DNA from: Nemertoderma westbladi
Taxonomy: Eukaryota; Animalia; Xenacoelomorpha
Assembly: GCA_032718475.1 (NCBI GenBank)
Contig: JAUCBJ010003661.1
Location: 1-47,726 of the forward strand
Length of the DNA: 47,726 nucleotides
Direction of reading: 5' to 3'
Shown here: positions 10,482 through 43,422 of the stretch, in pieces
Layout of the letters: each line of letters opens with the position of its first letter
Position numbering within the stretch: position 1 is the stretch's first letter
Position numbers and translations under genes: made by a program
The notes under the pieces: generated by a model
Told to the model about the DNA's origin: nothing
Databases searched by the model: none
What the model saw: the letters and a program-made list of their open reading frames with translations, nothing else

Positions 10482-11061
10482 GAATAATAAATATTACGCT
10501 ACGCGTACAGACTACTCAAACAAAATACAGACCAAACGCTGACAGACTACTATCAAGCCTAAACAAACTACGGTATATGCAGACTCCGAAATGGTTAGTT
10601 AGTATGCGTTCTAACCGAGTAGTACGACTTATTCTTTCGAGGGGGTTTACCTCACAGCACTGGAAGCCCCTACGTTCCTAACTAGTACTTTATCGGACAT
10701 ACACTCTACACACACCGCAATCTCTTCAGACCTAACAACAGCCAGACAACAATCCAGCCTACAAATTATCTAAATAAGAAATATTACACTACCCGTACAG
10801 ACTACACATACAAAATACAGACCAAACGCTGGCAGACTACTATCAAGCCTAAACAAACTACAGTATATGCAGACTCCGAAATGGTTAGTTAGTATGCGTT
10901 CTAACCGAGTAGTACGACTTATTCTTTCGAGGGGATTTACCTCACAGCACTGGAAGCCCCTACTTTCCTAACTAGTACTTTATCGGACATACACTCTACA
11001 CACACCGCAATCTCTTCAGACTTAACAACAGTCAGACAACAGTCCAGCCTACAAATTATCT
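10482..11061. repeat. Tandem duplication, 2 x 290 bp, in the retrotransposon leader
   Basis: ATATTAC.CTAC.CGTACAGAC...CCTACAAATTATCT recurs at offset 290 (10491 and 10781) with few substitutions. Confidence 0.92.
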
Positions 11062-11330
11062 GTACAATCTGAGCAGGCTTACACGCCTTCTGCTCAATAT
11101 TGGCCTACAAATAAATAAAACTGACAGAAATAAGTAAAATCCCAATAAAGAACCAGGGCGGGCCCTCCCTGATTCAATTATTAAGGCCTACCGGTATATA
11201 ATTATCAAATCGAATAATACTGCTGTACCTGTACTGCTGTAAGTACCGGTCCGGGTGGTTAGGTAGTCAGGCCTACTGGGTACCGGTTGACCGGTACTTC
11301 AGCTTTATTGCCTACTGCAATACAGAAGCA

Positions 11331-11341: not shown

Positions 11342-12510
11342 TGTTCGCGCTTTCAGACCTTTAGCAGTTTAACCTGCCAAATTTAGATGTCTTCTAGATT
11401 ATAAATCGACTTTAGCCTATGACGAGTATTTGATACACTACATTAGCCGAAGCCAGTCTATGCGCGACCATTCACCCGCTGGATATACCCGGGAGACTGG
11501 ATTCGGAAGCCTTGACCTTATTGCGGTGTAGGCCTACTGTATTATTCGACTGATTGTTAATATATAATCTCTGACCAATATTATTCACTTTCGGGAAATA
11601 TTAACAGTTCCTTTAGGACGTGGCGCTCTAAATATGTAAACAGAGTTATGACTTACACTAGACACAACGGGATGGCTATGGATTCACGTATAAAGCGCAT
11701 TCTTTAGGAGATGCTTCGTTATCAGTCACAATCATGCACACTACCGCACAATGCTGCACACCGATCTGCCGACCTTCACTAATTTTAGTCACATATAAAG
11801 AGAACAACCACTGACTCATGTAGTGCCTATGAAATAGCATTAGATTCACTCCAAAACCAATATAATGTAAGTCGCAATTGTTATATGTAACCAGTCTCTC
11901 TAACCTTCAGTATATCAAGAAGATTGGGGTTTCTGATTATTGATCGATATTATCCCAATATAATAATATTCCATCAACTGATATAATTAATAACCGACAG
12001 TAAATAGCAGTAAAAATGCGGTGTTTTGATTGTTTTGTTTGATTAGGTATGAATTGTTTGGATAACGGTTATACGTTCTATGATCAAGCCTACTAATGTT
12101 TTGCTAAAGCCTGAAAACACAGAGATTCCAAAGCCGGTCTTCTGGCTGTGGACAAAATACACAAACTGACTCAATTGCATGAGTTTCTGTATACAATCTC
12201 CAACACAGAGTCAAAAAACGCTCTGATTGGTCGACCGAACAAAGAAAGAACAGAGAACAAAGGAAAAGCTCCACGTGTACAGATCAGCTGTTAGCCGTCG
12301 TCATAGTAACTACACTGTGTCAAGAGGATTTTAGCGTATTGCGACATAAAATTGCTAGTTATGTCCGCTAAAGTACACATACAGAAGAAATGGCTTTTTA
12401 TGTCCACTAAAACACCGGTACAGTAAGGAAACGGCTTTTTATGTCCGTTAAACCAAATACAGAGTACTTTGCGGGGAAAATAACCAGCTAATTCCGCAAA
12501 AGCTTTTACA
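11342..12510 (-). repeat. LTR, 1169 bp (5' LTR of the minus-strand element)
   Basis: Minus strand reads TGTAAAAG...CGCGAACA; homologous to 2315-3562; lies upstream of gag. Confidence 0.8.
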
Positions 12511-15500
12511 CTGTAGCATGGTAGTGTTTACTTGATTAATTTACACTATTATAGTTATGTTATGTTATTATCATGATGTCATTATTTAATACTAAATATG
12601 ATACGCAAATGAAATTTAATTATTCTTATTATGCAATACGAAAGTAAATACTGTATTTTTTTTAAAAATAAATTAAAGTAACTCAGGATGACTATCAGCA
12701 ACCTTATAATTAGTACCAATCGATTCAGCGTTAGTGAAATATCTTAAAAAGTTGTTTTTACTTGCCATGAGATAAAATTGAAGCTTTTCTGCAGTTAAAA
12801 TGAATGGCCCCGCTAGAGGTCCCTGAAGATCTGCTATGCCAGTCCTTATTATTTAAGTTTAAGTATGAAGCGAGTTTGAAAGATGTCGTTCGCGGCGAAT
12901 ACATATTAAAATCGAGTTATATTGGTGTTGTAAGGGTCTCTAAGCCACGATTCTAGGTAAAACAAATTCCTTTTATCATATGGCCATTTCGTGTATCAAC
13001 ACACGTTTTCAGTGATATAAATATACTGTATAATAAAATGTTTACGTAATTTACATATTAAAATAAGTATGTACGCGGTTAAGTTTAATTGAATAATATA
13101 CTGTAAAAGATACTAATTATATGAGGCTATCGTACAGTATATGCCTGGTTACGAGGATGATGTTAAATAATTAAAATAAATAAAATTATGAGCAGTGGTA
13201 AAAAGAGAGATTAGGCTGACAGCATGGAGGATAAATTAAATTAAAATAGGTAAGTAAAATAAAGTTAAAAATATAATAATGTGATACTTTTCGGATGAAA
13301 AATCGATAAAATGCGAAGCGTGACTAAGGCTAGGTAGATACAATACAATTAATTAAGTTAAAATAAGTAAAAATAAATATAAAGATATACGGCGATTTAG
13401 GTATGGATGGCTAGGAAGATACAATTAAATAAAATGAAATAAAGTGAAATGAAATGGAATAAAATTAAATTATTTAAAACATGAGCAGATAATCGATAAA
13501 ATTCATAAAATGAGATAAAGTTGATAGATTACACCGCAACTCGCAATATTTGCAGAATGACTGATACACGGACCAAGATGTTTCAAAACTCTTCGCTCCA
13601 AGTGCTATTAGATATCTAATAAACAATGAGATACCGATTTTCATGCTATGATATTTAATTTATGTATAGTTTTATCTACAATTCTTAAATATTGGCACGT
13701 TATTTTTAATTTAATTTAATTTTATTTATCTAGTTTGTAGGCTTATCGTTGAATTGTTTACTTTTCTTTTTTTTCGTTAATTTTCTCATACGTATTTTCA
13801 ATTTTTATTTATTTATTATTTTTATTAGCCTGATGTTAATTTTTATTAAGTTGCTAGTCTCTCATCGTATCTTTTAATAATTTTGAGCTTTTTTTTTAAG
13901 TAGAAGTTAAGTAGAAGTAACCATTTTTGTGATACATATAATGGAATATATAGTACTATATGATGATATATTAATATATATCATTAATTGATATAATGAT
14001 ATATATATAGTTTCCTCCTGATATAGCTGCTATATGGCGACATCTAAGTGTCACCTTGTTTTAAATGTTTTCTCCCATAGTACGTGTGGAATTATTCCTA
14101 TAGTTTTCGGTCTGTTATAACTATTTACATACTTGTGTGTGAAGTAGCACTTTACAACAAATGTGTGTACCGTTGTACTGTACAGTATATGCCCAGAGCG
14201 AGATGTAGAGCTAATACACTTAAAATTTCACTACTTCTGGTGGTTAATTGTCCTTAGCGAATGTGGGGCGGAATTGCTTGTTAGTACAGTATATTCAACT
14301 CTTTTTTAAATCCAGCATGTTTATCAAATTGAGCATTTGTTTGACAAGTCCGGACGATGTTATTCAATTCCAAGACAGCTTTTAGGGTAGATTGATACTG
14401 ATTGCTGGAAATTGTGCTTGTTTAATAATATACTAGTTTAATAATAATATGCTTGTTTTGATAGGAATTGCTTCATAGGTCGGAAATAGGGGGGTGAAGG
14501 TGTAATATTTATATAAGATATAGCTATATAAATTGGATGTGACTAAAAAAATAATAATCTTAGTCGTTAATACAGATTCTTGGCACGAACAATTCCAAGA
14601 GATTAACTATATATACTTAATATCATAATATCGCGATCATGTATTGTGTATTTTGTTTAGAGTTTACATAAAGACTGCTATGCTTAACTAAATAGTAATT
14701 ATTCATGTATCAAAAAATAATAACCTCACTAAAATAATGAATGAATGAATGGTATGGACATATTATTAGGTCAAGTTGCCAGGAATTAGTGGCTACTATA
14801 ATAATTAAGAATCTCATTACATAAACATTATCTCAGGATAACCAATTGTTATAATTTTGGTTGGGTCGATAAACCATTGTAGCTCAATGATTTATTACTA
14901 CTCTATGGGGTTCTTTACTTGTACTATAAACTCTAATTGCTTGTTTATGTTTGAAACCCCCTGCCATCTGAAATTTCAGCTTGAGTGATTTTGAATGAAC
15001 TCGGTTCAATTGCAGTAGATGTATAGATAGATATATATATACGTTATGGTGAAATGTTATGTGCTGGACACCCTTGATGTATTGTAGTATACCAAGGCCA
15101 AGCCTGGGGGCTTCCTACAGGGCTATCGCTAGGTAGGCATTGAATGCTGTGACACTGACGTGACCTCATTCATTGTGTGTTGCAGTTTAATCTCAACCTC
15201 TGAATAACATAATATACGTTTTGCTTTCATATCAATAATGTAATACAAATTCATATTCCTGTGCTATGTGGCATATATTCAATTTTATCAAGATACAATG
15301 AAACTAATATCTTAACTCTTTCTTATCTTAACCTGTTTCAGAATATATTTATCATGAGAAAAGTTGAAAATTATTTTTCGATGATTTACCATCCTACATG
15401 GTATTTTTGTAATTTAAACACGTGCATCGGTTCATGGGGGCCTTATAGCACAGCACAAAGTATAGATGATTTCTTGCGTATCAGTACAATAGTGGACCAG

Positions 15501-16229
15501 ATCACCCCTTTCAATTTTCAGATTAATCTGATTGTTTATTCTATAATTATGGCTACTTCTATGTATCTTACTATTCGCCCCCTATCAGCAGACTGAGGCA
15601 CTATAGAAATCTGCCTCTGTGGATAATTTCTATCAATTGACAGACTACAGGTGTAGAAAGTTTTAATACGTAAACATAAGTTGTTCATATTTACGCTAAT
15701 TCATTTTTACTTTTCTCAGTATTATAGTGGGATGGCTTCAGTTCAGACGCTCTGGTGGGATCTCAAGTCCTCTAAGAATGACAAAATTCACAATTAAAAA
15801 ATAAATACAATATTTAGATTTATTAGAGAAAGGAACTGGTTACATTGACAGGCCATTCTAACCAAACAATTGAACGTAATCAAAACTACATATACTTTTG
15901 TTTTTCAGAGTAAACCGTAGATGTTTTGGAGGGTTTAATTATGTCAGAGTAACCACCCAGCCACCCGCCCCCCCTCCCCCACCCCCCCCCCCCCCCCCCC
16001 CATCCCTGACTCCTATTTGCGTTTCATGGATTGTTTGCGAGCCAATTTCTTATTATTCCTGAGAGACAACGACAGTTTTATGGGAGAGTTGATTTGTAAA
16101 AACCCGCCGTTTAAAGTGAAATCTAAGTGGAAAGGAAATTCGACTAAAAACTTTAAAAGAATCTTTAGAAAAGCGTTCCCACTCAACTAACTTACTTCCT
16201 AATTACTTGTAAACCCAATGATAATCTAA

Positions 16230-16443
16230 ATAGTCACGTTTTTAATCCTGTTCGATTTGGAAATGTAATAATGTTAGTTGTATCTTGTAGGTCTTCTTTA
16301 ATGCTACCGTATTATTAATCTATTACCTATAATAGGTGTTGCTTTCATTCACAACGACTTACATTTATTCATTAAATTTAGTTAATTGCGCTGTGAAAAT
16401 TAACATACGGCACGACCCAAACACTAATGAAAATTCCACTTAG
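16230..16443 (+). repeat. Dispersed ~200-bp repeat, copy 1 (possible non-autonomous Helitron 3' end)
   Basis: Homologous to 37060-37252 (+) and 43423-43638 (-). All end in ...ACACTAATGAAAATTCCACTTA(G). Confidence 0.75.
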
Positions 16444-19775: not shown

Positions 19776-20270
19776 TTACCCCAAGACTATAATGAGACTT
19801 ATGGGTTCGTTAGTTCTACAGGTGATCCCAATGATACTGAACGTACCAGCTCTGTATGTCAAAGGAACTTTTGGCTTATCGAGATTTTAGATTTTGCCTC
19901 AAGGCAAAAGTATAGCCAAATTTTAAGTATATCTTAAACTTATTTTACTATATTTGAGTGCGAACTGTATCCCTGAAGCCTGAATCCTATTCACTATTCG
20001 CTTTTATATTTTTAAGAAAATTTCTACGATCTACGAAAATAAATCCTCTGCAATTCTAAATTTTCAGAACGCGCGCCTAGATTTATTATAACTTTTTGTC
20101 TTCATTAAGTGGTATAATATTCACAGTATTGCACAGAGCGCAAGTGAAAATCCAGCGGCCAGATCAAATTAGTTGAATATGAAATAAAGTTTGGTTTATT
20201 GTTTTGATTAGAGAACATGGGCACCGTAACCTGCTCCTTTCCGTTAATGTTTTAAGTTAAATAAAATTAT

Positions 20271-20821
20271 TGTGACGGGATCCGAGAGGATCCCGGTTTA
20301 TCCGGTGTTGTTTGTGTACGCGTCAGCCGCACCGTGTGATGGAAAAGGTGATAGTTCGTTGTTCCGACGTTCTTAATAATATAGGCTAGATAAATATGTG
20401 ATAGCATATAGATTGTGTAAACTGAACTGAGATAACCGGTAATATAGGTGACGGCGATGACGGTCTTAACTGTCACCGTACTGCCTGACTGTACTGGGAT
20501 AACTGGACAAATGACATAAAGACTGGTAATATATATTGCACGGTTGGCCGCATAACACTACTCAGCCGATGCCTTCCCCCCATTGGCTAATAACCCTGTT
20601 GTCGCCCTTCTACTTCCCCTGGGTGTGCTTCCCCCCCGCTGCTATCTCTCTCTCTCTCCCAGAGGTATAACCTCTGACCCCCGGTGTGTGTGTTCCCTTG
20701 GGGCCTATTGTCCCCGCTTATTGGGGTGATACAAGGTTGATTGGTAATCAACATTGTAGTTCCAATATTGCTTAAACCTCACTTTATGGGGCTTGATGTG
20801 GCGGAATTGAATACGCTCACA
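20271..20821 (-). repeat. 3' LTR (551 bp)
   Basis: Direct repeat of 26584-27134 with about 6 substitutions; preceded on the minus strand by the PPT. Confidence 0.97.
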
Positions 20822-20832
20822 CTCCCCCCCCC
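20822..20832 (-). other. Polypurine tract GGGGGGGGGAG
   Basis: Abuts the TGT of the 3' LTR on the minus strand. Confidence 0.9.
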
Positions 20833-21169: not shown

Positions 21170-22530
21170 GCCCTAATCTCTAATGCTACCCCTGTGCTAT
21201 CATACTATCTACCTACTACTTACTTGCTAACTATCTAACTCTCTACTAACTCTCCGACTCTAACTAGCTCGACTAAGTCTAACTAACTCCTACTAACTCT
21301 CTACTAACTCTCTCTAACTCTTACCAACTCTTCTAACTACGTGGCGCTTAGGGTGCCCACGACCCCTCTACTACTAACTCTAACTAAAACCCTCTAAGTC
21401 TACCAACTCTCTAGCCCTTTAACTAGAACTCTCTAACTCTACCCACTCTTCTAACTACGTGGCGCTTGCGGTGCCCACAACCACTCTGCTATCTGGCACC
21501 CTATGTGCCCGTCTCTACTACTCTACTACCTGGCACCCTATGTGCCCTCTCTACTACTCTACTACCTGGCACCCTATGTGCCCTCTCTACTACTCTACTA
21601 CCTCTCTAACTCTACTACCTGGCACCCTATGTGCCCGTCTCTACTATTCTACTAGATGGCACCCTATGTGCCCTCTCTACTACTCTACTACCTCTCTAAC
21701 TCTACTACCTGGCACCCTATGTGCCCGTCTCTACTATTCTACTACCTCTCTAACTCTACTACCTGGCACCCTATGTGCCCGTCTCTACTATTCTACTACC
21801 TGGCACCCTATGTGCCCTCTCTACTACTCCTCGCCTGCACGTGACGCTCTGAGTGCCGGCAGAGTGGGTACGTTAATTATGTGAACTACTACTAACTCTT
21901 ACTAACTCTACTAACTCTCTACTAACTCAACTAACTCTACTACTAACTCAACTAACTCTACTACTAACTCTTACTAACTCTACTACTAACTTCTTGTGCC
22001 CGGCACCCACCCTAATTAACATACCCTGCTCTTACATCAAACACGTCATCACGCCCATGCCCCACTTAGTTCAACGCATCCCCTACTAACTCTAACTACG
22101 TGGCGCTTGCGGTGCCCACAACCACTCTGCTTACTACTTCCTACGTGGCGCTTACGGTGCCCACAACCTCTACTGCTACTACTTTCTACGTGGCGCTTAC
22201 GGTGCCCACAACCCTCTACTGCTCTACTAACTTTCTAACTAATGGTACTACTCTCTTACTACCTAACTTCTACCTACTAACGGTACTACGTACCCTCTCA
22301 CTAACTTCTCTAACTCTCTCTACTAACGGTACTATGTACCCTCTTACCAACTTCTCTAAATCTCTCTACTAACTAACGGTACTACGTACCCTCTTACTAA
22401 CTAACTAACCTCTCTAACTAACTAGCGGTACTACGTACCGTCTTACTAACTAACTAACCTCTCTAACTAACGGTATTACGTACCCTCTAACTCTTCTAAC
22501 TTAACTAGCTATCTACTTACTTTCTGACTT
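21170..22530. repeat. CTAACT/CTACT low-complexity tract with nested minisatellites
   Basis: About 8 copies of TGGCACCCTATGTGCCC at 21490-21830; 5 copies of CTACGTGGCGCTT..GGTGCCCAC (21337, 21455, 22096, 22141, 22186); several GGTACTACGTACC mini-hairpins at 22280-22485. Confidence 0.9.
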
Positions 22531-22586: not shown

Positions 22587-23609
22587 TTATTTTGCGTGGG
22601 AAGGGCGTCTCGCCCTCATTCCCACCCCCCTCAGTCCAAAACCTTTCTTCCAGTAGGCACTCTCCCACTGCCCTCCTATACGTCCTCTTACTCTTCGCCA
22701 CACTTTCTTAGACACTACCTCTGCTGGCCTCCCCCTTAGTATGTGCGCTGGCATTAAAGGCCTCGACGACCCCCGTCCGTCCTTCGGTATACACGACGTC
22801 TGCCCATGTAATGCCCCCTCGCACTCTGTCAGTCCCGCGTGCGTATGCAACACGCCTCCTGCTTTCCTGAGTCCTTTGTTATGTCCACCCACGGACCTCT
22901 CTGCCCCTGGTCTAATCCTCTCACATCCTCTCCCTTTCCATCTTGTCTTCTTACTCGACCTCCCCCTTGTCGGTATGCCTCTCAACCGGACCGGCGTCTC
23001 TTCCGGACACTCCTCTGGACTATTGTCCTCCTGACACTCCACCGGACACTCCTCCGGTTTGTCCTCCGGACATTTCGCCGTCCGCTCCTCTCTATCTCCA
23101 TACCGATACTTGCTGGGATACCCATTCTCCTCCGCCCATTCTCTGACTGTTACTTCCTCGGGTAGTACTTTTCTCTTCTTTCTTGCCACTGTCGTGCTTG
23201 TAGCTGCTGTTTCTCTACACTCTCCGGGTCTGTGTCCTTCTACCACACATCGATGACATAGTCCGTTTGCGTCTGCGTAGGCTATACGATCTTGTTTGGG
23301 CAACGCTTGCCAGTGCTTACAACTCATGGTCTTATGGGTTCCGTCCCGATGTAATTGACATTCGAATCCTGTATTATAGCGTTTCCTGTATAGTCCCTCA
23401 CGTATCGCGCCTAGGTTCATATGTACCGATTTAGTGTTTTGGTTGCCTAGACTCGGCCTACTGGGTATATTGGGATTGTGTTTATTTGTGATGTTATTTT
23501 CTTTCTGTCCCTGCCACGGTGTGGCCCTACTACCAGCTAGCTGTGGGCTTGTAGTCCCCTGTATGGCCGCGTGTGGTAGCGACTGTCCGCACGACCTGTT
23601 CACGTCCAA
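22587..23609 (-). pseudogene. gag fragment with BEL/Pao-type zinc knuckles
   Basis: CQLHRDGTHKTMSC...WQAL...DR...NGLCHRCVVEGHRPGEC parallels knuckles 1 and 2 of the gag at 4102-7716; third knuckle and protease absent. Confidence 0.7.
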
Positions 23610-23787
23610 GGGGTTCGATGTTCTTGCTCCTATTGGGGTATATTGTTGATATTGTGATGGGGGAATGTCACCCTGCCCCCCCCCCCCCCCCCGCCGGTAT
23701 GTTTGGTACTGGGGTTGATGTTAATATATTGGGGCCCATACATCTATCTGCAATAACTCTCCCCTCCCCTGGATATATGTTATGTCC

Positions 23788-26531
23788 CTATGTATTATAG
23801 TCATGCTGCTGTACCGATATATGCCTACCCACTTCTTGCCTACCTACCAGTATGTACTCCGCGGCTTCCGGGTTTAATCCCGTCGTTCGCGCTATCCTAT
23901 CGCCTACTCTACATCTCCCAGCATGGCCTATAATAGTATGTGCAGTAAGGCCTACAGTATGTCCTGCAGTCTGCATGTGCCCTTTCGAACCGAAGTTTAA
24001 TCTTCGCGAATCTCGAATCTCCCCGCGACTACTGCACTCTCGATCGGCAGCTATATCCCATCGGGAAGCTTCTCTTCGATCCCCTCTCCTGGTCTCGACT
24101 TTGTATCGGTACGTCCTGTACCCCTCTCTTGGCGTGCGGTGCGTTTCTCCGGGGCGACGGCAATCTCCCGAAGTTCGACCCCACTGACTCCGTAACTCCA
24201 TCTCTACTATCGATGGTCCGCTATCTGTCCTCGCACTCCTATCGTTCGTGGTGACACTTCTTCTACTATCTTCTCTTCTTCTCTTTTCAGTGCAGTATTC
24301 CCGCTCGTGAGATCTCTCGTCGACCTCCCGGTTAAACTCCACTGTTCTTCTTCCCTCTTCTGATCGGGCTCGACGCTTCGTCTGCCCTCTCGCGACGTCA
24401 ACCTGCCTCTCTCTGTTCGATCGCACGCCGCTGGGGATACTCGCAATCCCCCTATTACTCTCCGTTGCCGGGTGTTGCGGTTTACCTAGCTCGGCCCGCG
24501 CATTATCCGCTGACGCCTGTGGGACACTCTCTGCCCCCCCCCCCCTCTCGCTACTAATCTCTCGCGGTGGGGTGTCCGTAGCCCCCCCCCCCCACCCGCC
24601 GCTTCTAACTTCACTACCTCTTACTACACTTCTACACCCCTCTTGTGGGACATTCTCTGCCCCCCCTCTCTCGCCACTAATCTTCTGTGGTGGGGCGCCC
24701 GTAGCCCCCCCCCCCCCCCACTCGCCACATCTTACTTCACTATCTCTTACTTCGTCTCTACACCCATCTCTAGTCGACGCACTGTCTCTACTACGGCTGG
24801 GTCTATTCACCCCCGCCTCTCTCTCTACTACTGCGTGGCCCACCAGGCCCACCTCGGGTTGGCTCAACCCCGCTACCTCCTGCCTACCAACTACGTGGCC
24901 TACCAGGCCACCGTCGGGTTGGCTTAACCCCGCCACCTCCTGCCTACTAACTACGTGGCCTACCAGGCCCCCGTCTGCCGGGTTATGTACGTCCGACACG
25001 CTCATATTAATAGCACCATTCCCAATATTATTTGTTAAATCAATTAAATTATTAGAATTTGAAACGGGATTATTATTTAAATTATTTAAATTAGAATTGT
25101 TATTATTTTCAAAATTTAAATTATTATTCGAATTATTTGAATTATTCTGAATATTTGAATTAATATTATTATTTGAATTTGAACTACCGGGTAAAATATT
25201 TCCTGTAATAAAGGGATTAGGGTTATCTACTACGGTACTATTAATACCAACATTTCCTAACTTACTACTACAACCCCCCCCCCCCCCGCCCGTACGGCTA
25301 CACCAGTTCTGGTTCTCTCGCCCGGTGTCTGTAAGTGGGGTCTCACTCTCTGATAGTTCCAACCGCGCCAGTTCTAGTCGGCGCCGCTCCAGTTTGACTT
25401 GATATTGCGTAAGCCACTCCAGTCGGGCACGCAAATCATCCCGCTCACGCTCTGCCTCTATCTCTCTCTCTGCACTCTCGTAAACTTCGCTCGGCCAACT
25501 CTGTGTCTCTCGCAACCATCTCAAACCGCCTCGCCGACTCGCTCTCTACTCCCATCTCCCGCTCTCTACACTCCTCGGCTCTCTCTCTACACTCCTCGAC
25601 TCTCTCTCTATCCTCCCTTGCCCACTCTCTTTCTCTCTCCAACCATGCGGTTTCCTCACTCACCTGCCTCTCTAATTCTTTCTGCTCTGTCGCCACCATT
25701 GCTAATTTATACGTCAGATTTATCTCCAGCACCCTTCTTTCTTTTGCGGAGGATGTAGCAGACTTATTGGTTGCAACGGACTCCCGTCGCCCCTCCGTCC
25801 CACCAACTTTCCCCCGCCTCCCTGAACTTCCTCCGACCGATGAGACCGAATCCTCGGGGTTAACCTCGGATTCGCCCTCCTGCGGTCTCCTCCAACCCAC
25901 TAATTTTACTCCCCGGGCATCGACTGAGTATGGCCCTATGTACACTACACTAGGCACCATGCCCCTACATTCCCATAGTTCGAGCAGTTCACTGGCCACC
26001 CCTCTCGCTCTCTCGCTGGCTAGTTCTTCCTGCCCAAAACGCTTTAAAATAGTCAAAGTGTTCGTTCGACTCACCTACTCTTTTCTTCAAGTTTACCTCG
26101 TTTATCTGGGCCCCCTCTTTGGCCTCCTTAAGTAGTTTCCGGGTCGCGTTGTAGGCCCGTCGAAGTCGATCGCTGACCCCGACGTCCTCGTCGCCGACAT
26201 CTCCTCCATCTCTCCGGGTCCAGCGTCGTACCGTCGGCTCCACCGTCGCCGTTCTGGTGGACCGTTCGTCGCCCTCGGCCTGTGGCTGGCCGGCGACATC
26301 GGTACGTCGACCCTCGCTCCGCGTCGACTCGTCTTTCTCTTCTCCCGTCTCGTCTCCTCCTTCTCTCGACTCGCTCTCCAGTTGTAGACGGCCCCCCTTC
26401 TCTTGGATTGCCGGATCGCGGGTGGTCGGCGTATCCGGCGTCGTGGGTCGGTACCGTCTCGTCGCGGCGTCGCGGATCGTTAGATCGTCGTCCGGGGTCC
26501 GCGGCGGTGTCGTCTCTCCTGTCCGACTCAT
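23788..26531 (-). pseudogene. Frameshifted gag N-terminal region (ORFs 25989-26531, 25445-26074, 23788-25524)
   Basis: First ATG is 52 nt after the LTR. Three overlapping frames; VNPEDSVSSV motif followed by a Ser-rich stretch and Glu/Arg coiled coil as in BEL/Pao Gag; Asn-rich tract; internal repeats. Confidence 0.65.
24518..24972. repeat. Tandem repeats in gag: 2 x ~126 bp and about 2.5 x 60 bp
   Basis: TGTGGGACA...TACACCC at 24518 and 24644; ACTACGTGGCCTACCAGGCC units at 60-bp spacing (GGLVGHVV..QEVAGLSQP). Confidence 0.85.
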
Positions 26532-26574
26532 CTTGGTCTTTCAGTGGCTATCAGTCACAGTTCGGCAGGCCTAG

Positions 26575-26583
26575 AGTTAAGAC
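26575..26583 (-). other. Non-tRNA primer-binding site candidate GTCTTAACT, complementary to the element's own LTR
   Basis: Directly follows the 5' LTR; exact reverse complement at 26776-26784; no TGG. Confidence 0.6.
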
Positions 26584-27134
26584 TGTGACGGGATCCGAGA
26601 GGATCCCGGTTTATCCGGTGTTGTTTATGTACGCGTCAGCCGCACCGTGTGATGGAAAAGGTGATAGTTCGTTGTTCCGACGTTCTTAATATTATAGGCT
26701 AGATAAATATGTGATAGCATATAGATTGTGTAAACTGAACTGAGATAACCGGTAATATAGGTGACGGCGATGACGGTCTTAACTGTCACCGTACTGCCTG
26801 ACTGTACTGGGATAACTGGACAAATGACATAAAGACTGGTAATATATATTGCACGGTTGGCCGCATAACACTACTCAGCCGATGCCTTCCCCCCATTGGC
26901 TAATAACCCTGTTGTCGCCCTTCTACTTCCCCTGGGTGTGCTTCCCCCCCGCTGCTATCTCTCTCTCTCTCCCGGAGGTATAACCTCTGACCCCCGCTGT
27001 GTGTGTTCCCTTGGGGCCTATTGTCCCCGCTTATTGGGGTGATACAAGGTTGATTGGTAATCAACCTTGTAGTTCCAATATTGCTTAAACCTCACTTTAT
27101 GGGGCTTGATGTGGCGGAATTGAATACACTCACA
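26584..27134 (-). repeat. 5' LTR (551 bp)
   Basis: Direct repeat of 20271-20821; perfect 8-bp hairpin CGGGATCC-4 nt-GGATCCCG at 26589-26608. Confidence 0.97.
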
Positions 27135-28776
27135 ATTATTTTTTAAACACAGTTAATGTTTGTGGATATTTTGCGCCATTAACTCTTTATTTAACCACGG
27201 CCAACCCTGCAGGACATATTTAGAAAAATAGCTCGCGGTAATAAAGTGCAAGCTGATTGTCTTTTAGTATAATACAAAAAATTCATAAAAATAATGTCAC
27301 TCAAAATGCCAGCTATAGATGTCAGTTAACATATGTGGTTTACCATACTAAAGCTGCGCGTATATCACAAGTAGGCCTAACTGTAGAAAATAACGTTAGT
27401 TATGCCAAACTTATCACAGTAGGAGGCAAGGTGACAAAATTGCTTCCCTATATATTTATAGTAATGGGCCTAAACTGTTTACCATTATGAAGTGCGTCCA
27501 AAGTGTGCGCGACATATTATACACATGTGATATATAATTGAATATCTTATCTTTGTAAGAAATCAACAAGAATACTTACTTATTGTGTTATAAAATGGTT
27601 AGTTAGACACCAAATGTTTGAATGTTTCTACTTTGACTCTCCAGATGAATACAATAAGTTAATGTGTTATTCGTAATTTAATTCTTGGAGAAGTGGGTGT
27701 GGTCTTGCAGATGTTTCCCTTGCTGCAGAGGGGGGAGTTGTCACGCTATAATTAACTTAACATTTCGAACTGACAAGCGGTCAAATAATCGAGTATATAC
27801 CATTATTATGAAGTAGACGATTAGGTAACTACAGTATATAGCGAAATAATTTTGTGACTTGATTAATTTTCTGACCAGGATTAATTATTAGCTTTAGGAT
27901 TTATTTGAATTTTGCGGTATTTTGACCGATTATAATGAAACAAGAGATATTATGTTGAAAAACATGGTAACCTTAACATGTCAGTTATTGTCACCATGTT
28001 TTTTTCCCATTCGGACATTTTGTCATGTATTCGGATCTTTAACTATTAGCCAATCATTAGCCTTAATTTTCTGAGCTCCGTCCGACTTCTACACCACCAA
28101 TACCCAATCCCCTCTGTCCCGACCTGACCTCCATCTCAGTGGAACTTAGATATAAAATAAAACTAAATTGTCAGAAATAAGACCCAATGAACTATAAACA
28201 AGGCGATTTGTATAAAGACTACTCAAATCTGAGAGCACCTGTAAATTCACATTGAGACATCCCGACCCTGACTAACACTAAATATTTATTGGTAAAACAT
28301 AGTGTAAAACATTGAACCCAATATACTTTATGATGCAACGGGAAAATCCGCTCGGGGAAGAAAATTAATAAATAAAGAAACCGCAAGGTGGTATCATGAA
28401 AATGAAGTCTCATTTCACTGCTTACTGAATACAGATAAAGTCAATCAACAAAGCAGTTAAACAATCTATTCGGCCTCTAGACAGCCGATAACTTCGGATG
28501 AATTCATTAATTTAACCCACAACCACCCCATTCTTCCTCCAAAAAAATATAATGTTTAGCGGAAAAAAAATATACCTTATAATGTTTAACAGTTATATGA
28601 TTTTTGATTTCTAAAAGATATTGATGATAAGTGCGGATTATAAAATTATTTGCTTTTTGATTTCTATGCATGCTATTCATGTGCAGTGCATGATATATAT
28701 ACAATTACTATGCATTACTGTAGTAGTTACCTATTATTGAGTGTATATTGTAGGGTCCATATATACCCTCGCCAAT

Positions 28777-29782
28777 GGTGACACAGAACCATTTGAAGTG
28801 TTATGGGGCGTCCTCCAGGGAGACACACTTGCACCATTCTTGTTCATAATTGTTGTGGACTATGTTCTACGCATGTCCTTAGATCATCATAATGATGATG
28901 GGATGATGATAACTCCACCTACTGACTCCAGAAGTTGAGGAAATCCTGCCAAGTACCTAACTGATCTAGACTTTGCTGATGACTTAGGAGTACTCTCAGA
29001 ATCACTGAGGGAGCCCAACGGCTCCTCAGCTCATTAGAACATGCTGCTTCTAGTGTTGGTCTTTTTATTAACTCCAGAAAGACCAAAATTCTGACAGTTA
29101 ACTTTGAAAGTCCTCAGCAAGTCTCTGATCGGATGAGCATAAGCTCAAAGGATGGTATGCTTGAGCATGTGGACGACTTCTGTTACCTGGGATCATGGAT
29201 CCGGAAGTCAGGTGAGGACCTTCGAATACGTAAGGGAAAGGCATGGGCAGCCTTGAATGGGCTTTCCAGGATTTGGAAGTCACCGAGAATTAATCGGAAA
29301 CTTAAGGTCCGATTATTTAGAGCAGCAGTAGTTCCAGTACTCCTCTACGGGAGTCCATGCTGGGCTCTAACTGCTGAGGACACCAAATCTCTGGATGGCA
29401 CATTCTCAAGAATGCTACGCCGGGTTCATTGTGTGAAGTACAATGCACACATCTCCAACCAGACAATATATAACATTGGATTTGTCTCATTGGTTCCCCC
29501 AAGCTTGACACTAGAACGAAATCGCCTCCGCTTTGCAGGACATTGCTTTCGCCGTGAGGACCAGCCAGTGCATAATCTTGTACTTTGGCAGACTCATGGA
29601 GGGAATAAGCATGGTGGACAGCTTTCTTGAGACGCATTTTAAAGGACAAAGGGCCTTGAAGATGCGGATGATCTAGTAAATGTCATGGGTGATAGGGAGT
29701 TGTGGCGGTGCAATTTTGTCGATAAGCCGGCACGGCATTCTTAAAAGTGCACCTGCAATGCAGCATGCCGATCCTAGTAGTA
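28777..29782 (+). mobile_element. 5'-truncated RTE-type LINE (RT C-terminal half and 3' end), copy 1
   Basis: GVLQGDTLAPFLF, LDFADDL, DFCYLGSW, VLLYGS..W, RLRFAGH; stops and frameshifts; (TAG)n tail at about 29775. Confidence 0.92.
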
Positions 29783-31382: not shown

Positions 31383-31692
31383 TATTGCTGCCTACCTCAG
31401 AGTAAGCCTAATTACTGCAGTTTTTACTTTTATTCTAGCAAAGGCAAAACTTTAGTTTTAAGAACTGATTATTTATTTATGATATAATTTAATTAATTGG
31501 TAAAAACTCGTACAAATTCCACCCACTACACGAATCGCTATGATTCAAAGTCAATTGGCCACTTCCTCCCAGAAAAAATTATATAGGGAGGAAAGTCACC
31601 CCAATAATACTAAAAAAGGAACTGCGACTATTCTGAATTCAGAGAACAAAAGTTTTTATAAATCACAAAGAAATCTGCAATCGAATGCCACC

Positions 31693-32075
31693 ATGTGTAG
31701 ACAAAGTCCGCCGAAATCGATATGGAATCCCTGGCGGGATATTGAATGCGAAGTTGAAAGCAAAAAACAGGAATTCCAGCCAGCAAAGCAAACAGACCGA
31801 GAAAACGGTGATCAGCCTATAGACGGAAGTAAACATGACGTCATAGATATTGAAAGTTTAGATAATTTCTATGAAGAAAGTGGCCCAGAGGATGGGTTCG
31901 ATTCCCGTGGGTTTAGTGAAGTCAGCGCAGGTGACCATAGTAACAAGAAGAAAGCAGTTAAACCTCCGTACAGCTACATAGCTCTAATCACCATGTCTAT
32001 ACTGGCCTCCCCTCATAGGAAACTCACACTCAGCGGGATATGCGAGTTTATTATGGCGCGGTTCCCGTATTTCAG
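31693..32075 (+). CDS. FoxD: Forkhead box D transcription factor, exon 1 (in-frame upstream ATG at 31540 also possible)
   Basis: Kozak GCCACCATG; acidic DVIDIES motif; [40 protein letters not shown]; donor AG|GTGAG at 32076. Confidence 0.92.
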
Positions 32076-32453
32076 GTGAGTTTAGTTCAATTTTAATTAA
32101 TCAATTAATTAATGGGTCCGGTACTACTACTATGACTATCTAATAAGAGTTTACGGTGTCTGCATTCTAATATTGTGTATTGTGTGACTGTGTTAATATA
32201 TGAAAAAGTTTTCCTTAAACGCATTTTAAGTATATTAAAAATACGATACTTGTATCTTCTCAACAACAATTCAATATAAATAAAATATTTATTAAATAAA
32301 AAAAACATAAAATAAAATAGATTATAAAATTACCTAATAAATTAATGTAGGTATAATTTTGCAGCTTAATTAAGTACTTATTTTTTTATAATTAAGTTGC
32401 CAGCATAGTTGCTTAAGCTAAATTAAGCGCAATTTAATATTCGCGTTTTTTAA

Positions 32454-33777: not shown

Positions 33778-35256
33778 ACTACTACTACTACTAGGATCGG
33801 CATGCTGCATTGCAGCTGCATTTTTAAGAATGCTGTGCCGGCTTGTCGACAAAATTGCGCCACCACAACTCCCTATCACCCATGACATTTGCTAGATCAT
33901 CCGCATCTTCAAGGCCAGTGTCCTTTAAGATGCGTCTCAAGAAAGTCATGGGCTGTCCACCATATGCTTATTCACTCCATGAGGCTGCCAAAGTACAAGA
34001 TTATGCACTGGCTGGTCCTCACGGCGAAAGCAATGTCCTGCAAAGCGGAGGCGATTTTGTTCTAGTCTAGTGTCAAGCTTGGGGGAACCAATGAGACACC
34101 TAAAATGTTATATAGTGTCTGGTTGGAGATGTGTGCATTGTACTTGACACAATGAACCCGGCGTAGCATTCTCGTGAATGTGCCATCCAGAGATTTGGTG
34201 TCCTCAGCAGTTAGAGCCCAGCATGGACTCCCATAGAGGAGTACTGGAACTACTGCTGCTCTAAATAACCGGACCTTAGGTTTCCGATTAATTCTCGGTG
34301 ACTTCCAAATCCTGGAAAGCCTATTCAAGGCTGCCCATGCCTTTCCCTTACGTATTCGAAGGTCCTCACCTGACTTCCGGATCCATGATCCCAGGTAACA
34401 GAAGTCGTCCACATACTCAAGCATACCATCCTTTGAGCTTATGCTCATCCGATCGGAGACTTGCTGAGGACTTTCAAAGTTAACTGTCAAAATTTAGGTC
34501 TTTCTGGAGTTAATAAAAAGACTAACACTAGAAGCTGCATGTTCTAATGAGCTGAAGAGCCAGCCGTTGGGCTCCCTCTAGTGATTCTGAGAGTACTCCT
34601 AAGTCATCAGCAAAGTCTAACCCCATCATCATTATGATGATCTAAGGACATGTGTAGAACATAGTCAACCACAATTATGAACAAGAATGGTGCAAGTGTG
34701 TCTCCCTGGAGGACGCCCCATAACACTTCAAATGGTTATGTGTCACCGTCATAACAGTAGACACAAATGTTGTCGAACCATCGTATACTGATCCGATTGC
34801 TGGAATAATTTCATCAGGAATCCCATATAATGAAAGTATGCTGAACATACGTGAGCGAGAGACTGAATCAAAGGCCTTGAAGAAGTCAACAAAGATAACA
34901 GCCAGATGCCTGTCTTTCTTTTTTGATAAGTCTTCAATAATCCTTCTAAGTGCCAAAATGGGCTCCATGGTCCCACGACCTTTACGGAACCCATTCTGAT
35001 TTCCACGGAGCAGTCTCTCAATGGGATCCCTGATGCGATTTAATAGAATTCTATTGTATAGCTTTGCAGCAATCGAGATCAATGAGATTCCCCGAAAAGA
35101 ACCATAGAGTGTTAGGTTGCCCTTCTTGGGAACTGGCACCAACTTATTTGTTTTCATTTCTTGTGAGACTCTTGTTGTTCGGTACATGTCTACTATGATG
35201 GGATAGATGAGCTTTATACACTCGGGTATTTTAAAGACCTCAGGGGGAACACCATC
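33778..35256 (-). mobile_element. 5'-truncated RTE-type LINE, copy 2 (longest)
   Basis: DGVPPEVFK, PVPKKGNL...FRGISL, QNGFRKGR, FVDFFKAFDSV; near-identical to copy 1; (TAG)n tail at 33778-33793; internal deletion near 34620. Confidence 0.93.
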
Positions 35257-36539
35257 TAAGAGACACGACGAGTATATCTTTACCAAAATATATATATTGC
35301 GGCCGTTCTGTTTTTAGTTCGGGGTGTTCTGATTCGTTTCTTCATTGAAATTGAATCTAGATTTAAAATTTGGTTGCGCTGTTAATTTTGGTTGAGAAGA
35401 GAAATGCTTCATACAATTAATTTATGTAGGTCCTAATAGTCGATTAATTAGTATATCAACTGTAACAAAACCGTCTCCATATAATTTTACAGATAATTCT
35501 GGCCAATTTTAGTGAGGCCATCTACAATTATATATCATATTACTTAACGTAAATCGAAAAACTCAAATCCAGAGAACTTTTTTCATTTATATAAGATAAT
35601 TAAATATAATATTTGGAATCCAATCTGCACGTCAAATAAAACGAAATAAAGGTAAACACATATTATCAAACATTTAAAAGCTGTTACAGTAAAAAATATT
35701 CGCTATAAATTTTATCATTAAAGCTTCGTGTTTGCTTATGAGTGAGTGTCACATTATTTGTCATAGAGGGGTAGGGGGTTTCACATACAGCTGTCATCTT
35801 CCTATAATTACACGCTTCTTCACTTACAGTTAAACTTGTTGTTAGAAGTCCTTCACGATTTTATCGTAAAGCTGCGGATACAGTAGTAACTATAAAACCA
35901 TATTGATTGAAAGTCAACGGTGGATTAAACTATATACTGAAATTGTGTAGGAAGAAACACAAAGCCGAAACATCCACAATTGATACAGGCCCAACCGGAT
36001 GATAGCTGATGGTTTGTAAGCCAAAGAAATGTTTGACTGACTGCCCAGCACGAAGCCACAACATACCTTCAAACATTCTGGGCTCAATTAATGGAATCGA
36101 TGATGAAGACAACATGCCTGTATCGACCAACTCGATAAACTGGTTACATTTCTATTAAGTGTTTCGATTGCGCAACGTGTGCGGTGCGTGCATTATGTAT
36201 AGAATATAGGAATGTAAAAGAGGTAAATTAACGTATTTCCGACTAGTCAACCCCCCATCATCCCTTTTATTACATTTTGTGTCACCTCACCTTCACCGGA
36301 ATTAAAATGCGAGACATTCTCCCGACGGTGACCTTTGTCTACATGGGCTCGTCTCCTATCATTGCGGCTTATATATTTCTAACTTCCTTGAATCATTCAT
36401 ATGGGGATGAGGTTTTGTATTTAGTTGCATTATAGTTGTATATAATTAGGCTTAGCCTGACTCTCGTCGGCTCTCCAAAAGAAATTGAATTGAATGTAAT
36501 TGGGAGTGAGATATATATTTGGTTCGAACTCTACAGTTT

Positions 36540-36785: not shown

Positions 36786-37059
36786 CGGAAGGCAACTCGA
36801 AAGTGTTGTGCTGTATACCGTTGATCGCACCGTATATATACTGACCTCATCTCCCAAGTAGGCTTAGGTGCTCTCGTGCTTAAATCCTGCGTCGAAAATA
36901 TAAATGTTGGAATTTACGAATACGAAAACACTTTTCAGCGTTTAAACTAAACGCTAAAAAGAAAAGGCGACAAAACCAAAAGTAATTTTACAGCTCATCA
37001 CTTTGATGAAGCCGGATTTGTCAATGCATTCTTAATTTTGTCTTCGCTCGAGATACTGA

Positions 37060-37252
37060 ATAGTCACGTACATCCAGTTCGATTCGGAAATGTAATAATG
37101 TTAGTGGTACCCTGTAGGTCTTCTAGCGTATTATTAATCTATTACCTATGCGTTGTTTTCACGACGACTTTCATTTATTCATTAAATTTAGTTAATTGCG
37201 CTGTGAAAATCAACATTCGACACGATCCAAACACTAATGAAAATTCCACTTA
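37060..37252 (+). repeat. Dispersed ~200-bp repeat, copy 2
   Basis: Homologous to 16230-16443 with small deletions. Confidence 0.75.
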
Positions 37253-37402
37253 ATTATAACATTTAGGTTTCTCTATTTTTTGCAAGGAACGATATTAGAA
37301 TCTCAATTAAAATAAACTTTGCCAACCAACAAGCTCAAAGGTCGCACAATGCTCCAACGAAACCTACCAACATACTGCACTATAATAATGACAATCGCGG
37401 AA

Positions 37403-39632: not shown

Positions 39633-41210
39633 CAGGGGACCACCGAGGCCAGATACATTGGGGGGTGTCAACTTGCTTACTGGGCGGAATAGCCAACCAA
39701 CCACCAAGGTTAAGGCTGAATCACCAGCTGATCGCCTCAATGGTTGGAACTACTAGGATCGGCATGCTGCATTGCAGCTGCATTTTTAAGAATGCTGTGC
39801 CGGCTTGTCGACAAAATTGCACCGCCACAACTCCCTATCACCCATGACATTTGCTAGATCATCCGCATCTTCAAGGCCGATGTCCTTTAAGATGCGTCAC
39901 AAGAAAGTCATGGGCTGTCCACCATGCTTATTCACTCCATGAGACTGCCAAAGTACAAGATTATGCACTGGCTGGTCCTCACGGCGAAAGCAATGCCCTG
40001 CAAAGCGGAGGCGATTTTGTTCTAGTGTCAAGCTTGGGGGAACCAATGAGACACCTCCAATGTTATATAGTGTCTGGTTGGAGATGTGTGCATTGTACTT
40101 GACACAATGAACCCGGCGTAGCATTCTTGTGAATGTGCCATCCAGAGATTTGGTGTCCTCAGCAGTTAGAGACCAGCATGGACTCCCATAGAGGAGTACT
40201 GGAACTACTGCTGCTCTAAATAATCGGACCTTAAGTTTCCGATTAATTCTCGGTGACTTCCAAATCCTGGAAAGCCTATTCAGGGCTGCCCATGCCTTTC
40301 CCTTACGTATTCGAAGGTCCTCACCTGACTTTCGGATCCATGAACCCAGGTAACAGAAGTCGTCGACATGCTCAAGCATACCATCCTTTGAGCTTATACT
40401 CAGCCGGTCAGAGACTTGCTGATGATTTTCAAAGTTAACTGTCAAAATTTTGGTCTTTCTGGAGTTAATAAAAAGACCAACACTAGAAGCAGCATGTTAT
40501 AATGAGCTGAGGAGCCGTTGGGCTCCCTCTAGTGATTCTGAGAGTACTCCTAAGTCATAGCAAAGTCTAGATCAGTTAGGTACTTTGCAGGATTTCCTCA
40601 TTATCACGATTCTCATTGAATCGCCTGGGACCTAATCTACGCTTGTGGTGTCTGGAAAACTGTGCATATGAATCAATCTCATATGAATCAATCTTGCAAA
40701 TTGCTAGAACAGCGTCTATTTCTTTGTTTACATTGTCGTCTCTTCTGAACTGAAAGTCACAAGGGTATTCACTATGCTTTTTATAAAATCCAGACCATCC
40801 AATATGTTTGAATCTGTACTTTGTAAGCTAAGAGTTGACACATTCAGCAATCCCACTGCCTGATCATTCGTTTTCCTGTCACATACAATGACCCTGCAAC
40901 TAATGTCATTCAGTATAGCAATGTTCGCATCTAAACTAATCCAGACTGCAACAACAGTATGCAAAAACACGGCAACAGTACATGTAGCAAGAACTCTTAA
41001 CTGTACAGGCTCTAGGTGACCTGTGAGCCATGAATATGCAGTACTGACTGACGAAAACAATGCTAGAGCAAATTCCTTCATGTTTTTTTTTGAATTAATC
41101 ACATTCTCCAAAATTCTTCTGAATTTGTCAAATTTCTTCCTAATTTATCAGAACTTTGGGGGGCTGTCACCTGTCACACACCCCCACACACCCCTATAAA
41201 TGGGCCACTG
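39633..41210 (-). mobile_element. Deleted hAT DNA transposon interrupted by LINE copy 3
   Basis: Termini CAGGGGACCA / CAGTGGCCCA; 8-bp TSD GCTCTGTC (39625-39632) vs GCGCTGTC (41211-41218); 40728-41111 translates to a transposase-like stretch (DQAVGLL...LSLQSTDSNILDGLDFIKS). Confidence 0.55.
39749..40600 (-). mobile_element. 5'-truncated RTE-type LINE, copy 3
   Basis: Near-identical to copies 1 and 2; 182-aa RT C-terminal frame; short (TAG)n tail. Confidence 0.93.
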
Positions 41211-41492: not shown

Positions 41493-41697
41493 TATCACGG
41501 AAATTCCTGACGACCAGCAGTGGTAACCAACAAATAATTATAAATAAGCGAATATTGCGTCCACAGGCCATTATTCAACGTTAAACTTGGTAAAAAATGC
41601 ACGCGAACGCGACAGGTACCGGTATAAACTTGCAATATTCGCTTATTTATAATTATTTTGTGGTTACCACAACTGGTCTTCAGGAATTCCCGTGATA
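41493..41697. mobile_element. MITE-like foldback with ~66-bp inverted repeats, TA at both outer ends
   Basis: TATCACGGAAATTCCTGACGACCAG...AATAAGCGAATATTGC and its reverse complement at 41632-41697. Confidence 0.75.
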
Positions 41698-43422
41698 ACA
41701 ATGATACTAACGGTAACCAGGGCCAACCAATTAAGTAAAAGACAACCTGCTGGAGACAGAAGGATCACAGCAAAATGTAGACAGACACCTTACTTACACC
41801 AATTTCAACCATTCGCCCACAGCAATATTCACCCGATAAATAATTATAACTTAAGTTATTGTGTTGCTGGTTATTATGAAACTGTAGAACTCACCTGTGC
41901 TATTGACTACGGTTTATTGTTTAGGTTAGAATTACATGCCTCTGTTCTGTAACCTGCTCTTTTCCCTTTATTGATTGGGCGAAGATTGCCTGCTGAGAAT
42001 GGTTTCTCTCGGGCGAAAGTTGCCCTTTATGAGGGCGAAGGTTGCTCTGGAAGAAGATTAGACGGATATGAATTAAGCTTTCTGAGTACCGTTAGTTCAG
42101 CAGTACAGCCATGTGTCATGGGATTACAGGTGGAGTTCGTAGGAGCAATCTACTGAATCTTGGCCTCACGGCTCACGCAGTACGAGTGCGAATGTTCCTC
42201 GTGCTGCGCGAAGGCCTCACCTACTCGTTTTACGAAGTTGCACATGGACAGTTTAAATCAATATATTTGCTATTTACAGTTTGCAATACAACCTAAAGGT
42301 TTCTGTCAATAGACGGTCGCGCACATAGCCCTAGCCTGCAACCGGCCCTTAATAATCCAGACATACGTATAAAGGGATTTATAATTTACGATAGAGACCG
42401 CGTATATAGTGCAATAGGCCTGCCGCCCGCCCAACAACTCACTAAAAGGGTTCACTAATCTTCTTTAACAAACAATGCTCACCCATACTGGGAGCCCCCA
42501 TTCCATCTGTGCTGTGTTTAACCCCAGTTGTCTCAATATTTATGGTTCAATCAAGCTTGAAATCCTAAATAGGCGATTAGAGATCAGGTAATGGTTTCGG
42601 TTGTTTGTGGGTTTACCGAGCCTTCCACTACCGGTACCGGTAGTGTAAGGCTAGCTATGCTATAACTACAGTATATACTATAGCTGCACGCCACTGCGGT
42701 GAATGGGCCCCTTTCTGAGTCATTTAAAAGGATTGAAATTTCGTTTGTCAATAATAGTAATATGAATATATAGACACTTACATTTATCTTGTGTAGATAG
42801 TGTTTAAATATGGGGTGAGCCACGTATTAAACTTGAGCATGTGTGAGCCAGAATTTTTATTTTTGGTTTCATTCTTTAGCTACAAGCGCTAAAAATAGTG
42901 TCTCCTGCGATATTGCACCAGTTACACCGCAGTTATTCTTCATACATGCAACATTCGAATGGCCATTTCTCAGCTATTTCCCAACCAAATTCAAATATTT
43001 TTACATTGCAGATAGATCGGATTTGAAACCGTCACCAGTTCATGGCGAACGGAAATTATACCGAAAAGTACCATAAAGATAAGAATCAGATTCATTAGCG
43101 ACGGAGTTTCTAACCAAAACAAGAAACTATCGTCCTTCAAGAATGGTACGTACCAATAAATTTTAAAATTAAACAAAATAAATAAACGACAAAGAACATT
43201 AATCTAATATTTTATAGTACAATCTACTTTAATTCTACTCTACTTTACTATAATATCTATTTTATTTACTCTTAAATCTGATTTTCCTTGATCCGTGAAC
43301 GATAAGTAAACGGCAATAAATAATGATGCCGCAATTAAATCCCAACTTTACAGACACATATTCCGTCGCTATAAGATGTATTTCGCGGTCTTTTTCAAGT
43401 TTGCGTAATCTAAAAGTTATAA

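Follow-up and report, generated by a model that had tools for sequence, protein, structure and literature searches.

A self-complementary, non-tRNA primer binding site and a candidate RNA self-primer in a probable BEL/Pao-derived retrotransposon of Nemertoderma westbladi

In a 47,726-nucleotide contig of Nemertoderma westbladi (JAUCBJ010003661.1; the whole of this stretch is called the window), we identified a young, non-autonomous LTR retrotransposon. Its primer binding site (PBS) is real, conserved and non-tRNA, with a self-pairing fold. Our data suggest that the element probably self-primes in some form. To a more specific model, built on predicted folds and on analogy with Tf1, we give roughly even chances: an element of BEL/Pao origin would prime itself with a ~42-nt fragment from the 5′ end of its own RNA, which would start at 26817 and be cut after 26776.

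Element structure and affiliation

The element lies on the minus strand, spans 27134-20271 (6.9 kb) and is complete, without pol. The hallmarks of an LTR retrotransposon are all present, namely two direct TG...CA LTRs, a target site duplication (TSD) and a polypurine tract (Table 1), and the LTRs are 98.9% identical, with six substitutions between the 5′ and 3′ copies. The Gag-like pieces comprise an acidic N-terminus, a coiled-coil-like part, an Asn-rich part with repeats, and a knuckle part. Pfam searches of all 16 sense-strand open stretches of at least 45 aa detected no capsid, protease, RT, RNase H or integrase, and the best relevant match in the element was a zinc knuckle (E 0.077). Because it has no pol, the element depends on a partner's enzymes.

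Table 1 Features of the element and its predicted priming region (window coordinates).
Feature	Position	Strand	Details
CCAAT box	26895..26899	-	-82 from 26817; motif match, putative function
TATA box TATATATT	26841..26848	-	-31 from 26817, -64 from 26784; motif match
Initiator-type motif; predicted start 26817	26813..26819	-	motif, and edge of conserved island in 3/3 runs
5′ LTR	26584..27134	-	551 nt, TGTGAG...GTCACA
3′ LTR	20271..20821	-	551 nt
Target site duplication ATAAT, upstream copy	27135..27139	-	5 bp; read from flank
Target site duplication ATAAT, downstream copy	20266..20270	-	read from flank
Polypurine tract	20822..20832	-	nine G then AG; abuts 3′ LTR
Gag-like coding region	22590..26531	-	four pieces in different frames
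Two zinc knuckles, BEL/Pao-type spacing	23217..23360	-	first has His for second Cys; third knuckle absent
Purine-rich tandem repeats, non-coding	21223..22492	-	~1.3 kb
Non-tRNA primer binding site GTCTTAACT	26575..26583	-	zero bases after LTR end
AGTTAAGAC, exact PBS complement; predicted primer 3′ end	26776..26784	-	putative cut between 26776 and 26775
8-bp U5 hairpin adjoining PBS	26589..26608	-	pair probability 0.89-1.0; indel variants in or beside loop
5′ part of predicted self-primer, pairs with leader behind PBS	26788..26816	-	fold
Leader segment complementary to predicted RNA 5′ end	26547..26570	-	fold
R-U5 stem, 5′ strand	26760..26775	-	fold; directly behind predicted cut
R-U5 stem, 3′ strand	26634..26646	-	fold; altered yet complementary version in loose ends

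A preliminary description of this DNA had called the family BEL/Pao. The knuckle motifs of its Gag make this label plausible; the element has neither an RT nor a DUF1759 match. BEL-type Gags carry three zinc knuckles with characteristic spacing; the focal Gag retains two of the three, the first degenerate, and this degenerate knuckle is the one source of the assignment. A HMMER search with the knuckle region gave four matches (E 1.8e-4 to 9.7e-4), all with the triple-knuckle pattern and two also carrying DUF1759 (E 3e-10 and 0.006). The focal spacing (C-x7-H-x4-C, DR, C-x2-C-x4-H-x4-C) aligns with that of DUF1759-linked Gags, and six knuckle regions share eight invariant Cys, His and Arg columns. 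A neighbouring DUF1759 element aligns to the focal knuckle region at E 0.002. The DUF1759 capsid itself had no match at E up to 10 in any of the 16 sense-strand open stretches (at least 45 aa), a loss that is expected in a deletion derivative; the window's DUF1759 ORF (4102-7983) belongs to another element. These comparisons suggest that the element is likely of BEL/Pao descent. In the Atlas, knuckle-type clusters scored below 0.9 and a further search gave no usable match. DNA pattern scans of contigs from viruses and metagenomes returned no matches. Protein searches for relatives or a partner either gave no hits or yielded pattern matches (15 and 601) among which no locus was confirmed.

An alternative is that self-priming is real and the autonomous partner belongs to Ty3/gypsy (Tf1/sushi-like or Gmr1-like), so that the family would join a type of self-priming element already known. 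The focal element lacks an RT, its predicted three-duplex layout is as in Tf1/sushi in the accounts available in part, and its LTR 3′ end, CGTCACA, fits the Sushi (CNTNACA) and rGmr1 (CGTNACA) motifs in the available part of PMC3601003. The motif table there covers no BEL/Pao LTRs, which leaves the match without discriminating power, and the LTR 5′ end, TGTGAGT, fails the Sushi motif at two of seven positions. Since the knuckle spacing also aligns with DUF1759-linked Gags and with the adjacent BEL Gag, we consider a Ty3/gypsy partner unlikely, while giving it some weight.

The window holds several further repeats. A second BEL/Pao deletion derivative lies at 4084-11300 on the minus strand (ORFs 9182-7671 and 7983-4102; no RT), with DUF1759 (E 4.5e-11), three knuckles, a protease-like motif, and short motifs that we take to be RNase H-like and integrase-end. 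It has a polypurine tract followed by TGTGAC near 4084 and a 290-bp tandem duplication at 10479-11061. No second LTR of this element was found within the window, so its PBS is of no use as a control. The same 15 bases surround the TATA motif at 26840-26854 and stand at 3938-3952, in the neighbour's presumed 3′ LTR (E 0.069, which may be chance). Inverted repeats of 38 nt (37/38) at 1-38 and 3563-3600 bound a 3.6-kb stretch, possibly a DNA transposon in the neighbour's LTR, and two diverged copies (67-83%) of one repeat flank the neighbour in opposite orientation (2314-3562 and 11342-12511). Three 5′-truncated LINE-type copies (RVT_1, DUF6451; 94-95% identical) occupy 28777-29782, 33786-35313 and 39749-40600; the two of them on the minus strand end in short TAG-type repeats. 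We also found a plus-strand forkhead-domain ORF (31504-32079, E 9.7e-13) that covers ~40 residues of the domain before stopping at an intron or break, three copies of a ~200-bp dispersed repeat (16226-16443, 37056-37269 and 43407-43638), and two fold-back (MITE-like) elements (41493-41697 and 45930-46048).

Primer binding site and predicted transcription start

The preliminary description had read the 5′ LTR as ending in GTCACA and running directly into GTCTTAACT, with no TGG. This statement about the sequence holds, with GTCTTAACT at zero offset (26583-26575), and we confirmed the exact complement AGTTAAGAC that it had placed inside the LTR at 26784-26776, 201 nt from the LTR end. The match is 9 bp long, with the tenth base unmatched, and the 9-mer occurs three times in the whole window, both strands counted: in the two LTRs and in the PBS itself. 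Such a match had been estimated to arise by chance a few times per thousand. We found the 9-mer in 53 of 20,000 dinucleotide-shuffled LTRs (0.27%); 178 of 20,000 contained it when the PBS was allowed to start 0-3 nt after the LTR. The perfect 8-bp U5 hairpin reported beside the PBS was likewise found, at 26608-26601/26596-26589. The proposal of a tRNA-independent, self-complementary PBS thus gained support beyond the original claim, with the 9-mer lying within a conserved island and a larger predicted three-helix fold. The 201 nt downstream of the 5′ LTR contain no TGG, which rules out priming at the PBS by the 3′ end of a mature tRNA. A decayed tRNA PBS 10 nt downstream was rejected on the same lack of TGG and on a variant leader that differs there. 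The window contains no tRNA genes, and a search of 26400-27200 against Rfam returned nothing below E 1.9, its three matches (E 1.9-9.8) being at chance level.

Six PBS bases could presumably face the anticodon loop of tRNA-Leu(UAA), a point we count for an alternative in which the primer is a host tRNA half or fragment and the LTR match is secondary. Half-tRNA priming is documented for Copia lineages (PMC6317226; FunCo1 in PMC5445492; both available in part). A tRNA fragment would leave to chance the 0.27% LTR match, the flanking helices and the retention of these helices in variants, and the leader past PBS base 8 differs between subfamilies, unlike a site held by a tRNA. We find this explanation quite improbable. 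Still harder to credit is that the 9-mer match is itself chance, in a decayed element that has lost its PBS: an event of 0.3-0.9% can appear in a scan of many elements, but the 98.9% LTR identity, the perfect TSD, the PBS bases kept in other subfamilies and the independent helices all argue against it.

The preliminary description had also placed the transcription start at 26784, in an initiator-like context, so that the first 9 nt of the RNA would serve as a 5′-terminal primer exactly as in Tf1, whose primer is ~11 nt long. The context at 26784 does not fit YCAKTY; that at 26817 does, and lies 31 nt behind the TATA box. TATATATT, read from 26848, is the only TATA-type motif found in the LTR, and we take 26895-26899 to match the CCAAT consensus. 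A TATA box at -31 and a CCAAT box at -82, their positions relative to 26817, have the usual spacing of an animal promoter, whereas relative to 26784 they would stand at -64 and -115. This spacing, the edge of the conserved island and the folding analysis favour 26817 and lend no support to a start at 26784 with a Tf1-like primer. The earlier site is thus probably wrong, and the sequence and folding models point to 26817 as the predicted start. In favour of 26784, described self-primers sit at the RNA 5′ end in the accounts available in part, and 26785/26784 is a C-A step. However, beyond the promoter spacing, base 26784 is T in 10-39% of depth in public DNA contigs, and RNA from this site folds no better than shuffled sequence (z -1.15; 27 of 200 shuffles as good), with a PBS duplex probability of 0.07-0.09. 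A Tf1-type start at 26784 is therefore very unlikely.

A primer made by splicing was also considered and rejected: the best GT-AG junction (26984 to 26783) gives an 11-nt match, and 587 of 3,000 shuffles that keep the 9-mer reach at least 11. Its acceptor is 47% pyrimidine with four AGs upstream, and it loses its own AG in the 26784 variant.

Predicted RNA fold and variation across the family

RNA starting at 26817 folds better than its shuffles (z -3.46; 0 of 200 as good), and among 13 start sites tested with 60 shuffles each the best z was at 26820. In the fold from 26817, about the first 24 nt of the RNA (nt 2-23, 26816-26795) are paired to leader positions 26547-26567, collinear with the PBS duplex. 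The helices at 26816-26795 have pair probabilities of 0.43-1.0, with 15 of 18 pairs above 0.8; three pairs at 26790-26788 reach only 0.03-0.05. A 13-bp R-U5 stem (nt 43-58 with 26634-26646; probabilities 0.85-1.0) begins at the base right behind the 9-mer. The 9-bp PBS duplex has a probability of 0.10-0.13 in the uncut fold and carries a penalty of 2.3 kcal/mol there when it is forced. Once the RNA is cut at 26776/26775, the optimal cofold includes it, and cofolding then gains -17.1 kcal/mol for the 42-mer versus -3.1 for the 9-mer. Of 510 LTR windows of 42 nt scored against the PBS and leader, the one from 26816 comes first and the one from 26817 second, with a rival U3 window scoring -31.5 against -32.8. 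The leader helix alone is weak: scored by energy, it was equalled by 574 and 748 of 5,000 shuffles; keeping the 9-mer fixed gave 413 of 5,000, and Watson-Crick scoring gave 360 of 10,000. The R-U5 stem was equalled in stability by 15 of 3,000 shuffles of the partner region and by 281 of 3,000 when the R strand was shuffled. Taken singly, each added helix is modest evidence from modelling.

In the mechanism that we propose, RNA would start at 26817, nt 2-23 would pair with the leader and nt 43-58 with U5 at 26634-26646, and the U5 hairpin would form. The outer helices would hold nt 34-42 opposite the PBS, and the RT/RNase H of an autonomous partner, acting in trans, may by analogy with Tf1 cut at the point where the R-U5 stem adjoins the PBS duplex, between 26776 and 26775. 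The new 3′-OH would be extended into TGTGAC, copying U5 and R to 26775, and strand transfer would follow via the 3′ copy of R. The outer helices would keep the primer bound, which would hardly be possible for a free 9-mer, and the long 5′ arm would explain why a 9-bp PBS suffices. The RNA 5′ end (26813-26801) resembles the LTR end and first PBS bases (26593-26582), and one leader segment can pair with either. Leader positions 26561-26554 are also complementary to the LTR end plus two PBS bases (26589-26582; 8 bp). Because the leader may also pair with the LTR end, these models make a two-state switch between leader pairings possible.

The same pairing could instead be a real RNA structure for packaging, dimerisation, translation control or 5′-3′ circularisation, with another molecule as the primer. 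The outer helices far exceed the PBS duplex in stability, the whole island is conserved beyond the 9-mer, and R also stands at the RNA 3′ end, as circularisation would need. GalEa and biv-TRIM elements without a tRNA PBS bear hairpins of unknown use, according to the available parts of PMC5445492 and PMC6934838. A non-priming role would, however, leave unexplained a perfect duplex that ends exactly at the LTR boundary, the site required for a primer 3′ end, and it names no alternative primer; we consider it unlikely.

Family variation was examined by eye in contigs only, from four public DNA runs (X1, X2, X3 and X5), and depth was not read as copy number. The comparison covered 40 of 202 rows of differences and, of the loose ends, 24 of 502 in one set and 18 of 90 in another; consensus rows of loose ends that precede 26582-26583 are mixed (agreement 0.52-0.65) and were left out. 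Changes close to where aligned pieces end seem to be missing from the difference table: it does not account for the 6 and 4 deviating letters in X5 records 19 and 20, so a missing row does not mean identity. The contigs show a multi-copy family with diverged subfamilies. An island at ~26755-26818 is kept where the flanking sequence on both sides fails to align, with joints that skip 98, 122 and 144 nt; the U5 end is kept too, while the sequence between island and U5 end is replaced.

Subfamily alignments stop at 26817-26818 in three of three runs, with initiator-like letters just upstream of this edge. Two loose ends have a TATA-like stretch at the same distance with different intervening letters (X1 at 26818; X2 at 26817), four other loose-end rows at the edge have no TATA (agreement 0.65-0.72), and one row is too short to tell. 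The sequence upstream of 26817 is 67% pyrimidine, as would suit a splice acceptor at 26817-26816, and pyrimidine content there is even higher in some low-agreement loose ends; the CCAAT and TATA spacing favours a start over an acceptor.

Both flanking helices appear to be kept in subfamily variants despite changed letters. A variant leader found in X1, X2 and X3 (three of four runs) keeps PBS bases 1-8 and retains 16 bases complementary to 26809-26795, with two single bulges. It closes most of the internal loop of the window copy and is unrelated opposite 26793-26785. The other side of its joint lies at 26592, for which we have no interpretation and which we counted against our reading. A variant U5 strand, seen in X1, X2 and X3 (6, 7 and 4 contigs; three of four runs), has another sequence and register, yet 10 of the 12 R bases remain matched, along with one G-U.

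The preliminary description had named co-variation of the PBS and its LTR site as a check, and here the outcome was mixed. A T at 26784 is common (X5, 92.6 of 239; X3, 1022 of 10101; X2, 727 of 4313; three of three runs), and the ninth PBS base of the variant leader (26575) is its complement. This pair fits compensation, but no single contig links the two changes, and a single change would fit by chance one time in three. Conversely, a variant at 26781 (X5, 37.6; X3, 689; X2, 184; 4-16% of depth; three of three runs) has no partner change at 26578 among the rows listed, nor does a PBS variant at 26579 (X3 and X2; two of three runs) have a partner at 26780 among those rows. Two X5 contigs skip from the start of gag to U5 across the PBS region, with the letters between unseen, so some subfamilies may have another PBS. 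Separately, a multi-copy variant (26584 to 26580 in X1; 26576 and 26579 in the other set) has two changes in the nine post-LTR bases and an unrelated-looking continuation. It marks a subfamily whose PBS is its own, or else flanking sequence that is repeated.

Relation to known elements

Self-priming is described for Tj1 and Tf2 in the available parts of PMC4600332 and PMC5341516. As far as these and PMC10085805 are available, the Tf1/Tf2 elements of S. pombe, Tj1, Tosmo1-3 and Tf1/sushi (Ty3/gypsy chromoviruses) share with the focal element a PBS right after the LTR CA that is complementary to the element's own R, with no tRNA site. In the same accounts of Tf1/sushi, a central duplex is flanked by two more (the 'pretzel'), which the three predicted helices of the focal element partly resemble. 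The Tf1-type duplex, though, sits at the RNA 5′ end, whereas the perfect focal duplex is 9 bp and is predicted at +34 to +42. Both flanking duplexes of the pretzel come from LTR sequence downstream of the self-primer, in contrast to the focal element, where one comes from upstream of the 9-mer. The focal Gag is also BEL/Pao-like, and we found no RT or chromodomain in the element. Available parts of PMC6317226 predict self-priming for Tcn1 and for the Ty1/copia TAR lineage (Houba, Osr-1) from PBS-LTR complementarity, so that the trait has been proposed in more than one superfamily; these are plant elements predicted with a 10-bp rule, from which the focal 9-bp match is one base short.

Belpaoviridae, as defined by the ICTV (PMC8742986), are primed by a host tRNA, their 18-nt PBS being complementary to the 3′ end of tRNA-Arg or tRNA-Gly; their replication is described there as poorly understood. 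The focal element is similar in its animal host, an LTR within 0.2-1.2 kb, a polypurine tract of ~10 nt, and Gag knuckle spacing like that of DUF1759-linked Gags, and differs in lacking the 18-nt tRNA PBS, the capsid and pol. Fungal GalEa elements with their 'conserved hairpin site' and bivalve biv-TRIM likewise have no tRNA PBS and a short inverted repeat just after the LTR in the available parts of PMC5445492 and PMC6934838, as the focal element does (8 bp, 26589-26582 with 26561-26554). For GalEa, the authors report in that part of PMC5445492 no LTR complement to the hairpin site, unlike the focal element, which has one.

The available parts of PMC3601003, PMC8220671 and PMC5443660 hold nothing on BEL priming, and PMC3118150 contains no occurrence of PBS, primer or tRNA. 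In agreement with the preliminary description, which knew of no self-priming BEL/Pao element, we found no report of one in the literature searched, part of it available as excerpts and all of it outside subscription journals, Repbase, GyDB and supplements; prior mention is possible. Our broadest reading, which we offer tentatively and with some doubt, is that an animal BEL/Pao lineage swapped tRNA priming for self-priming independently of Tf1/sushi and TAR. It would use a two-part primer cut 42 nt inside the RNA, the 5′ part clamping the leader and the last nine bases on the PBS, with a competing U5-leader fold as a switch.

The model predicts a capped start at ~26817, a cut at 26776/26775 and a 42-nt RNA on strong-stop DNA. 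Such families would escape annotation pipelines that insist on a tRNA PBS or on a self match of 10 bp. If the model is true, a tRNA-free element would, we infer, escape control by tRNA 3′ fragments, and self-priming would have arisen in a third LTR superfamily, against the ICTV definition of Belpaoviridae by host-tRNA priming.
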